Below, piece by piece: positions 25,557 through 26,865 of a stretch of 64,000 bases of DNA. The DNA is taken from assembly GCF_051903065.1 (NCBI RefSeq), contig NZ_CP178438.1. One strand, 5' to 3'. Position 1 is the stretch's first letter, and the number at the start of each line of letters is the position of its first letter. The DNA is from Escherichia coli. Lineage in GTDB: Bacteria; Pseudomonadota; Gammaproteobacteria; Enterobacterales; Enterobacteriaceae. The notes beneath the pieces are model-generated. The model did not search any database and was not told where the DNA came from. It worked only from the letters and a program-made list of their open reading frames with translations. The translations under genes were made by a program, and so were the position numbers.

Positions 25557-25988
25557 CCAGATCGTATAGGTCAAAAAAGTCTGTATTTGTCGGGAGCAGG
25601 ATTTTGTGTCCTGTTCGCGTTTCCTTTCTTCTTATTACTGGATAGCAAAAGTACGCTCATCATCTGGTGCAGTATGATCCTCGGCTACAACTTAGGTCCG
25701 ACGATGATGTTTGCCGTGCAGCCAACACTTTTCACCCGCATGTTCGGTACCAAAGTACGATATACCGGCCTTTCTTTTGCTTATCAATTTTCCGCGATTC
25801 TTGGCGGACTAAGCCCCCTTATCGCCTCAAGTTTGCTGGCGCTAGGGGGAGGAAAACCGTGGTATGTCGCTCTGTTTTTATTTGCTGTCTCAGTTCTTTC
25901 CTTTGTTTGCGTCTGGCTGATTGAGCCGACCGATGAACAAGAAACCGCTTCTTACCGCTACATCAGGGAACAATCTCATGAAAACTGA
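25557..25988 (+). pseudogene. 3' fragment of an MFS-type transporter gene, 5'-truncated at the IS1 junction
   Basis: The reading frame is open from the first base after IS1 and encodes only the last ~4 hydrophobic helices (…FCVLFAFPFFLLLD…LGGLSPLIASSLLALGG…YVALFLFAVSVLSFVCVWLIEP…); there is no upstream start or N-terminal half. Confidence 0.6.
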
Positions 25989-26865
25989 ACGAAAAAACGA
26001 GCATTACCTGGCGCTACAACAGGCGTTTGACGCGCCATGGCCTGGGCCTGTAGGAGAGTTAGTGACGCTGGAAAAAGGCAATATTCACCTGCAGATTTAT
26101 CCGCATGATGGTGCCAGGATAACCTCGTTAAAGGCATTTGGTTCTGAAGTATTACGCCAATGGCAGCCGCAGCGTAGAGCTTTTCAGTATGGCTGTTTCC
26201 CAATGGTGCCGTGGGCAGGGCGACTGGGGAATACGACGCTGAATGCTGGTGGGCAATGTTATTCTTTACCCGCCAATAAACCACCACATGCGTTGCATGG
26301 TATGGCTTGTTACTCAACGTGGGAAATCATCGACAAAACAGCAGATTCCCTGACTTTACGTATGCCCCTGGCTTCACCGTGGCCTTGGCAAGGGGAAGTG
26401 ATTCAGACTTTTTTGCTGGAGAACGATGCGCTGGTTTTGCAACTGGAAGTCCATTCATATGCCGATACATTCCCGGCCTCCGCAGGCTGGCATCCGTGGT
26501 TTGCGAAAAAGCTGACTCCGCAAAATACAGAATCGTTGCAGGTGCTTTTTGATGCGGACTGGCAAGAAGAAGCGGGTAGTGATGAACTGCCAACTGGAAA
26601 TCGCATCTCTCCTCAAGTCGGTCCCTGGGATGACTGTTTTGGTTTTTATGACGGGGTGAAGGTTAAGTTACTGTGGCCTGGTAAACTCGCGATGACCATG
26701 ATCTCTTCTGCAAACAGTCTGGTGGTATTTGATAAACAGCCCGATGCCACCTGTATTAACCCGCTGACTCAGGCACCTAACGCAATAAATCTAACGCCGG
26801 AATTGGTGACACCAGATAGGCCGCTGGTTATCGAAACTCGTTGGCAATTTACACCTGAATCTTAA
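25978..26865 (+). CDS. Aldose 1-epimerase (mutarotase) family protein
   Basis: Start codon overlaps the stop of the transporter fragment (ATGA); the protein looks like the galactose-mutarotase-like family. Family assignment is from memory; the start is chosen at the RBS-preceded ATG. Confidence 0.65.
   Translation: MKTERKNEHYLALQQAFDAPWPGPVGELVTLEKGNIHLQIYPHDGARITSLKAFGSEVLRQWQPQRRAFQYGCFPMVPWAGRLGNTTLNAGGQCYSLPANKPPHALHGMACYSTWEIIDKTADSLTLRMPLASPWPWQGEVIQTFLLENDALVLQLEVHSYADTFPASAGWHPWFAKKLTPQNTESLQVLFDADWQEEAGSDELPTGNRISPQVGPWDDCFGFYDGVKVKLLWPGKLAMTMISSANSLVVFDKQPDATCINPLTQAPNAINLTPELVTPDRPLVIETRWQFTPES

Follow-up and report, generated by a model that had tools for sequence, protein, structure and literature searches.

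An 11-nt start/stop overlap as a probable relic of an IS1-associated deletion in the short yih cassette of Escherichia coli

The short yih cassette of Escherichia coli has been described as a truncated, inverted yihTUVW allele lying in the slot of the K-12 sulfoquinovose cassette (Kaznadzey et al. 2025, PMC12608037). The YihW regulator binds the yihU/yihV intergenic region of this cassette; in Nissle 1917, sulfoquinovose does not induce the cassette (PMC12608037). IS1 is among the elements whose transposase can produce deletions in which the IS lacks direct repeats, and a deletion by IS-IS recombination likewise leaves one IS without a duplication (PMC9330008). IS1 can also activate neighbouring genes, forming fusion promoters only with a suitable -10 element in the flank (PMC9330008). 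Among overlapping operon junctions, overlaps of 4 or 1 nt are the commonest. In K-12, galK and galM overlap by 7 nt, and galM, the mutarotase gene, is the last gene of its operon.

The window analyzed here is a stretch of 64,000 nucleotides of E. coli DNA, of which the region under study corresponds to typA-yihL ... yihX-yihY-dtd-fabY. Over 2.5 kb it matches strain ECNB21-M121 at 100% identity; the PGAP coordinates of that strain are converted to those of the window by adding 21599. The features of the region are as follows.

23991-24701, plus strand: yihL, GntR-family regulator, intact (ORF, GntR and UTRA domains, PGAP)
24709-24789, plus strand: yihM', first 81 nt only (PGAP pseudogene; maps to the intact reference)
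24790-25557, plus strand: IS1 (IS1A-like), 768 bp (sequence, PGAP)
24797-24824, plus strand: CTGCCA-16-TATGAT, the single sigma-70 consensus match between 23700 and 27100; it lies in the left end of IS1 and points toward the epimerase
25558-25988, plus strand: remnant of a 449-aa MHS-family MFS transporter gene (MFS449), nt 920-1350 of 1350 (PGAP, domains, alignment)
25591-25635, plus strand: stable hairpin with U-rich tail, candidate terminator (-17.3 kcal/mol, z -4.7), 34 nt after IS1; stem region 25591-25619
25965-25969, plus strand: AGGGA, a weak (-5.1 kcal/mol) Shine-Dalgarno(SD)-like box conserved across genera, 8 nt upstream of the epimerase ATG
25978-25988, plus strand: 11-nt overlap ATGAAAACTGA of epimerase start and transporter stop (sequence, PGAP, orthologue junctions)
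25978-26865, plus strand: aldose-1-epimerase-family gene, 295 aa, intact, WP_044187191.1 (PGAP, Pfam)
26876-26916, plus strand: probable end-of-operon hairpin (-18.7 kcal/mol, z -5.0): a perfect inverted repeat of 13 bp around a 15-nt loop, beginning 11 nt past the epimerase stop
26939-27605, plus strand: homology with K-12 back from 26939; yihX at 27006-27605, preceded by its own strong SD

The sequence-only reading had noted that the ATG of the epimerase gene overlaps the stop of the transporter fragment, and this proved correct. The window reads cATGAaaacTGA at 25977-25988. The ATG at 25978-25980 opens the 295-aa frame that ends at 26865, and the transporter frame (142 aa, codons from 25560) is closed by the TGA at 25986-25988; the ATG starts 8 nt ahead of this TGA, which gives the 11-nt overlap. 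An earlier TGA, contained in the ATGA at 25979-25981, is out of frame with the transporter and was rejected as its stop. PGAP places an MFS pseudogene with a missing N-terminus at 25560-25988 and an aldose 1-epimerase at 25978-26865 in ECNB21-M121, boundaries that match those of the window; both genes are thus already annotated as such in RefSeq. A chance artefact of the window was ruled out, the overlap being annotated in intact and in other IS1-cut E. coli loci as well. With 11 nt it is longer than the commonest type, and its geometry is that of galK-galM and of two junctions further downstream, yihX/yihY (7 nt) and yihY/dtd (4 nt): co-directional genes with the start a few bases before the upstream stop. 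Unlike in these three pairs, the upstream partner in the window is a promoterless and startless fragment.

Intact orthologous operons of the kind the sequence-only reading pointed to were found in E. coli strain 48 and in the loci of other species. In strain 48, yihL, yihM and yihN are followed on the minus strand by a DeoR regulator and a PfkB sugar kinase, and on the plus strand by a yihU-like reductase, an aldolase, a Zn-dependent alcohol dehydrogenase (Zn-ADH), MFS477 (477 aa), MFS449 (449 aa) and the epimerase, and then by yihX. Aldolase, reductase, kinase and regulator share 67-72% identity with K-12 YihT, YihU, YihV and CsqR, respectively. The cluster occupies the same slot between yihN and yihX as the K-12 long cassette, relative to which it is inverted, and the remnant in the window corresponds to the 3' end of its plus-strand operon. 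Within this operon the intergenic gaps measure 24-98 nt up to the last junction, MFS449/epimerase, which again overlaps by 11 nt. Of 5,426 complete E. coli genomes, 1,342 carry the MFS449-epimerase segment. The transporter and the epimerase had been read as a co-translated unit. They are indeed adjacent, co-directional and overlapping in the ancestral arrangement; they do not, however, form a stand-alone pair but are genes five and six of the six-gene operon yihU'-aldolase-Zn-ADH-MFS477-MFS449-epimerase, with the regulator-bound intergenic region lying ~5.8 kb upstream of them.

To see how far this arrangement extends, one genome per species was scanned, which yielded 24 loci encoding epimerase relatives. 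In 22 of them the epimerase lies directly 3' of an MFS449 orthologue, and the order ADH-MFS477-MFS449-epimerase is largely kept, usually with aldolase and reductase upstream. The loci include Citrobacter, Phytobacter, Trabulsiella, Budvicia, Pantoea and Leminorella and extend to Vibrio, Roseospira, Propionivibrio, Sutterella and Succinivibrionaceae. The junctions between the two genes are distributed as follows.

11-nt overlap: Escherichia (including Escherichia sp.), C. sedlakii, C. amalonaticus, 'Mixta' BIT-26, Phytobacter
8-nt overlap: one Citrobacter
4-nt overlap: Trabulsiella
4- or 1-nt overlap, start uncertain: Vibrio
14- or 47-nt overlap, start uncertain: one Succinivibrionaceae genome
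1-2 nt gap: three loci
11-100 nt gap: about ten loci, among them two Citrobacter in which an earlier stop leaves a 30-nt gap

The junction is labile across loci. In the eleven aligned enterobacterial junctions the start reads ATGAA throughout and is preceded, at a distance of 8 nt, by a constant purine-rich box, CAGGGAAC or CAGAGAAC. In this alignment the conserved initiation signal is the SD-like box of the epimerase itself and not the overlap. An in-frame ATG at 25933, upstream of the annotated start, is not conserved, and we therefore take 25978 as the true start. Tight juxtaposition of the two genes is ancestral for the Escherichia-Citrobacter clade, and the 11-nt overlap was in all likelihood inherited from a common ancestor with Citrobacter and Phytobacter. 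By these comparisons we regard it as an unremarkable operon feature passed on by descent.

The promoter and 5' half of the transporter gene had been described as replaced by IS1. IS1 does adjoin the truncated transporter, but the extent of the loss was understated. In an alignment of the window to strain 48 the sequences flanking IS1 are separated by 9,628 bp of the intact locus, the junctions being at reference positions 15187 and 24816 and the left one between 24789 and 24790 of the window. The missing stretch runs from yihM nt 82 to MFS449 nt 919. Lost with it are the remainder of yihM, yihN, the regulator and kinase genes, four genes of the operon and the region upstream of the operon. Of the 1,350 nt of MFS449, 919 (68%) are gone and the last 431 remain; eight other genes or gene parts were removed as well. 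The short cassette is recognized by yihT, yihU, yihV and yihW paralogues between yihN and yihX; all four lie in the deleted 9,628 bp, and the window strain, devoid of yihT/U/V/W altogether, has kept only the last 1.4 kb of the cassette.

The element itself carries insA/insAB' at 24845-25542 on the plus strand (PGAP: IS1A family transposase, programmed frameshift) between imperfect terminal inverted repeats (22 of 35 positions match). No 9-bp target-site duplication flanks it: the left 9-mer is GCCTTTCAT and the right one CAGATCGTA, and because they differ this IS1 is not a simple insertion. A single IS1 at the junction without direct repeats is what IS1 adjacent deletions and IS-IS recombination deletions leave (PMC9330008, citing Turlan & Chandler 1995); as is typical of such deletions, a gene fragment lies on one side, and varied endpoints recur in related genomes. 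The exact junction pair occurs in only 3 of the 5,426 genomes. IS1 rearrangements of the locus in other genomes have the following endpoints.

yihN176 to MFS449, 669 nt left
yihM121 to MFS449, 552 nt left
yihN252 to MFS449, 390 nt left
IS1B-associated inversion, MFS449, 378 nt left
yihM137 to epimerase nt 144 (H8)

Further IS1 deletions were seen in the long cassette of other genomes. The right junctions cluster in the last 700 nt of MFS449 in one orientation; as reasons, an insertion hot spot and selection in favor of outward promoters were considered and rejected. In the ranking of IS1-cut genomes, pieces were joined only if they lay on the same strand and within ~1,750 nt, and clustering and shared orientation are therefore an ascertainment bias.

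By sequence, the deletion has the marks of a routine insertion-sequence scar that fits either adjacent deletion or IS1-IS1 recombination. The second route, homologous recombination between two direct IS1 copies in yihM and MFS449 rather than a one-step intramolecular (adjacent) deletion, is conceivable, though we lean away from it. The host lineage carries IS1 at 28-37 places per genome, IS1 hits yihM in at least 28 genomes, and one IS1 without duplication results by either route (PMC9330008). In addition, both junctions vary among related IS1-cut genomes, and more than one event per lineage is therefore needed in any case. On the other hand, IS1 is a classic producer of adjacent deletions, and a simple IS1 insertion at either exact junction was found in no genome of the collection, these junctions occurring only in the same three genomes. 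By whichever route, the deletion is presumably recent, since strain 48, which is intact, and the IS1-cut genome encode the very same epimerase protein (WP_044187191.1) and the exact junction pair is confined to three genomes.

What the truncation means for translation depends on the remnant frame. This frame still gives weak MFS_1/Sugar_tr matches (Pfam) and is open from 25500, within IS1. No credible start or SD was found in the remnant; in-frame TTG, ATG and GTG codons at 25587-25833 reach an anti-SD energy of -3.1 kcal/mol at best, to be compared with -5.1 kcal/mol for the epimerase and -11.6 kcal/mol for yihX. The insB stop at 25540-25542 lies in a different frame from the remnant. Since no remnant start has an SD, probably little upstream translation is left to couple to. 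Of the marks of a translationally coupled pair, a same-strand stop that overlaps the downstream start is present (11 nt), but an upstream frame translated up to its stop probably is not, the native start having been deleted along with 919 nt. The claim that translational coupling survives is thus borne out for the overlap geometry, which is intact, but not for the upstream frame, which lacks an SD-backed start and is out of frame with insB. Upstream translation at the remnant is probably little or none, and the epimerase probably relies on its own weak SD. Occlusion of SD and AUG was discarded as an argument for obligatory coupling, the predicted hairpin being weak (-3.8 kcal/mol) and not significant against shuffled sequences. 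The weak SD together with this small hairpin could equally mean that the epimerase has always been weakly translated.

Transcription of the gene was approached by consensus scans, which are insensitive and miss many real promoters. The sequence-only reading had the gene driven, if at all, by read-through from IS1, the counter-case being a promoter immediately upstream of 25978; the scan found no consensus promoter there. In 25400-25975 no sigma-70 site reaches 9 of 12 matches, and the best candidate (25731-25761) has 8 of 12 with a 19-nt spacer. We consider it very unlikely that an independent promoter in the 3' part of the transporter gene leaves expression of the epimerase unaffected by the deletion. 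In its favor, the six IS1-cut genomes with an MFS remnant all keep at least 378 nt upstream of the ATG, and the insensitivity of the scans leaves room for such a site. The retained length, however, follows from the way hits were joined (an ascertainment bias), the H8 deletion cuts the epimerase gene itself, and an 11-nt overlap closing a six-gene operon usually signals co-transcription.

A contribution of IS1 to transcription was considered next to this. Fusion (hybrid) promoters of IS1 were reportedly described by Prentki et al. in 1986. As in such promoters, an IS1 end faces a promoterless gene here; unlike in them, the flank in the window has no -10 hexamer at the right spacing. When a -35 in the IS end and a -10 in the flank 16-18 nt away were required, no hybrid reached 9 of 12 matches; the best, TTGGAG (25544-25549) followed after 15 nt by TATAGG, stayed below the scan threshold. 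The left-end promoter of IS1 is a weak one that InsA represses. Besides it, the yihL transcript, which now continues into yihM' and IS1, points into the epimerase region, a source that the sequence-only reading did not consider. Some read-through of IS1's own transcripts into the flank is likely, since these have to end somewhere, and read-through from IS1 or yihL-yihM' as far as the epimerase is possible judging from the arrangement. Such transcripts would have to pass the hairpin at 25591-25635, which once lay in translated sequence and is now probably untranslated, and ~420 nt of probably untranslated RNA between IS1 and the epimerase ATG (by GC skew this part is only mildly C-rich, which says nothing on Rho dependence). 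The predicted hairpin with its U-rich tail argues against efficient read-through from either source.

These observations also bear on the proposal that the overlap still serves as a translational coupler and that outward transcription from the IS1 right end keeps the epimerase expressed. The orientation of insA/insB and of the left-end promoter toward the epimerase and the undamaged overlap and SD box speak for it, as does the documented activation of neighboring genes by IS1 fusion promoters (PMC9330008). All the same we judge it unlikely. The remnant, without an SD-backed start and with insB ending in another frame, probably supports little upstream translation; the best IS1-end hybrid falls below threshold; hairpin, U-rich tail and 420 nt of untranslated RNA favor termination; and, as stated, the left-end promoter is weak and under InsA control.

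Based on the comparative analysis we propose, with considerable confidence in the explanation as a whole, that the locus is a remnant of the short cassette after an IS1-associated deletion, in which the overlap is a passive relic and the epimerase an orphan. An IS1 copy would have joined yihM nt 81 to MFS449 nt 920 without target-site duplication, thereby removing 9,628 bp; with 431 nt of the transporter and the whole epimerase left, the overlap would simply have persisted. In a remnant without a usable start, few ribosomes would arrive at the stop, and termination-reinitiation coupling would be lost. The epimerase would then depend on its own weak, conserved Shine-Dalgarno box and on transcription that leaks past the hairpin and the untranslated RNA, be it from the left-end promoter of IS1 or from yihL-yihM'. 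With all pathway partners gone it would be functionally orphaned, and its sequence would still be perfect because the deletion is recent. The consensus scans and the folding suggest that the gene is probably poorly expressed; most likely it is a recently orphaned, poorly expressed remnant. The H8 deletion, which cuts into the epimerase, implies that the gene is dispensable once the cluster is gone. Each feature of the locus is of a known kind: an operon overlap that was inherited, a deletion scar of IS1 and a terminal gene left as an orphan. A start/stop overlap can accordingly persist passively when the upstream gene loses its head. The strain and its three near-identical RefSeq relatives are without the short yih cassette, and the annotated 'aldose 1-epimerase' is best regarded as an orphan.

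The epimerase protein belongs to PF01263 (Aldose_epim; 76.7 bits against a cut-off of 27, E 2.6e-21, residues 28-212), the family of YihR and GalM, with which it shares the LHG and HPWF histidine motifs. In E. coli GalM, His104 and His175 are the catalytic histidines of the active site. Their counterparts His107 (LHG) and His172 (WHPWF) are invariant in 21 orthologues, and the motifs match 'QLHGG' and 'NHVYF' of GalM. The position of the catalytic glutamate (E309 in GalM, E273 in YihR) is occupied by Asn261 (26758-26760), the segments 'QGLALESE' of GalM and 'QGLAVEPM' of YihR aligning with 'DATCINPL' of the epimerase. Since GalM aligned to the family profile only over its N-terminal two thirds, this assignment rests on the profile alignment with the sulfoquinovose mutarotase YihR (96.8% probability over 252 columns) and on the 'QGLA[LV]E' motif. 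Sequence identity with YihR is 27% over 164 aa, and with 33.8 bits against a cut-off of 251 for NCBIfam PRK15172, the YihR equivalog model, the protein is not a YihR equivalog. Because the catalytic glutamate is replaced by Asn261, 'mutarotase' is only a putative label.

The short cassette proved to be an eight-gene cluster conserved across Proteobacteria, larger and far more widespread than described; the published account of a truncated yihTUVW (PMC12608037) mentions neither the Zn-ADH nor the epimerase nor either of the MFS genes. This larger size and wider conservation bear on the failure of the cassette to respond to sulfoquinovose. A literature search returned no characterized substrate of the ADH-containing cluster, and the supplements of PMC12608037 list no Nissle expression values for the epimerase or the MFS genes. 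As a tentative reading, which we regard as rather doubtful, what is left in the window may have formed the end of a complete and widely conserved pathway for an anionic, probably sulfonated sugar, and not of a 'truncated' sulfoquinovose cassette, the pathway consisting of the DeoR regulator, the kinase, the YihU-like reductase, the aldolase, the Zn-ADH, two MFS transporters and an epimerase-like protein of the Asn type that is no conventional mutarotase. If so, the terminal 'epimerase' could have a role that outlasts the loss of the other cluster genes.

Asparagine in place of the catalytic glutamate was seen in Escherichia, Citrobacter, Vibrio and others. The glutamate is kept in 6 of the 21 orthologues, those of Budvicia, Pantoea, Citrobacter NCU1, Roseospira, Edaphovirga and Leminorella; the others carry asparagine.

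The short yih cassette is an eight-gene cluster (positions 1-7308 of L002, the yih-region locus of strain 48, an E. coli with an intact short cassette, and 1879-10437 of the locus L003), whereas Kaznadzey et al. 2025 (PMC12608037) described it as a short (truncated) cassette, yihTUVW. Their paper makes no mention of its ADH, MFS and epimerase genes. The cluster is built up from two parts:

Minus-facing arm: DeoR regulator and kinase, opposite the six-gene operon.
Six-gene operon, in order: yihU' (a YihU-like reductase gene), aldolase, Zn-ADH, MFS477 and MFS449 (MFS transporters of 477 and 449 aa), epimerase.

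MFS449 belongs to the metabolite:H+ symporter family. In strain 48, where the cassette is otherwise intact, the annotation gives the gene of the Zn-dependent alcohol dehydrogenase (L002 2470-3480) as a pseudogene interrupted by an internal stop.

The genes of MFS449 and the epimerase are neighbours in 22 of the 24 loci from other species (L008-L031), most of these 22 also retaining the order ADH-MFS477 upstream of the pair. Loci with this gene order include those of Vibrio, Roseospira, Propionivibrio, Sutterella and Succinivibrionaceae, among others. A literature search found no characterised substrate for the ADH-containing eight-gene cluster. Taken together with the gene content and the gene order shared across species, this suggests that the cluster may constitute a complete pathway for another anionic sugar.

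The epimerase protein is strongly conserved among its orthologues outside one position. Asn261 (window 26758-26760) aligns with the catalytic glutamate of GalM (E309) and YihR (E273). Asparagine occupies this position in the orthologues from E. coli, most Citrobacter, Phytobacter, Trabulsiella, Vibrio, Sutterella and Succinivibrionaceae, while those from Budvicia, Pantoea, Citrobacter NCU1, Roseospira, Edaphovirga and Leminorella have glutamate instead.

Three palindromic elements were observed in and around the operon:

Window 26876-26916: inverted repeat, perfect 13 bp, 15-nt loop, 11 nt past the epimerase stop.
L002 4985-5018: palindrome TTAATGCGCATCGGC TTAA GCCGATGCGCATTAA, 15-bp stem, in the 98-nt MFS477/MFS449 gap of the intact operon.
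Window 26959-26998: imperfect palindrome TCCTTTCCCGCTACAG...CTTGTGGCGCGAAAGGA, covering the yihX Shine-Dalgarno region.

The first has a predicted folding energy of -18.7 kcal/mol (z -5.0) and lies within the cassette-specific DNA, which ends at 26938; it is probably the 3' hairpin of the operon. The second is not followed by a T-run on the plus strand; it may serve to stabilise the RNA as a hairpin, to bind a protein or to mark a sub-operon boundary. The third is common to the window and K-12.

At least seven distinct IS1 junction pairs hit the yih locus in other complete E. coli genomes (L004, L005, L006, L032, L033, L035, L036), in short-cassette and long-cassette backgrounds alike; this count includes an IS1B-associated inversion in ET82. 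IS1 is located near the yihM start in at least 28 genomes, and the orientation and clustering of the element at this locus are skewed by the search design. At least 10 genomes, a group resembling a single clone, seem to have a common junction near yihM nt 243. In LD27-1, the sole genome of that group inspected, this point in yihM appears to be joined to a fragment, probably of yihQ, that adjoins yihR. In the window, the yihM' reading frame (24709-24813) continues into the left end of IS1 and ends at a TAG within the inverted repeat; the predicted product of this fusion, read from the sequence, is a peptide of 34 aa.
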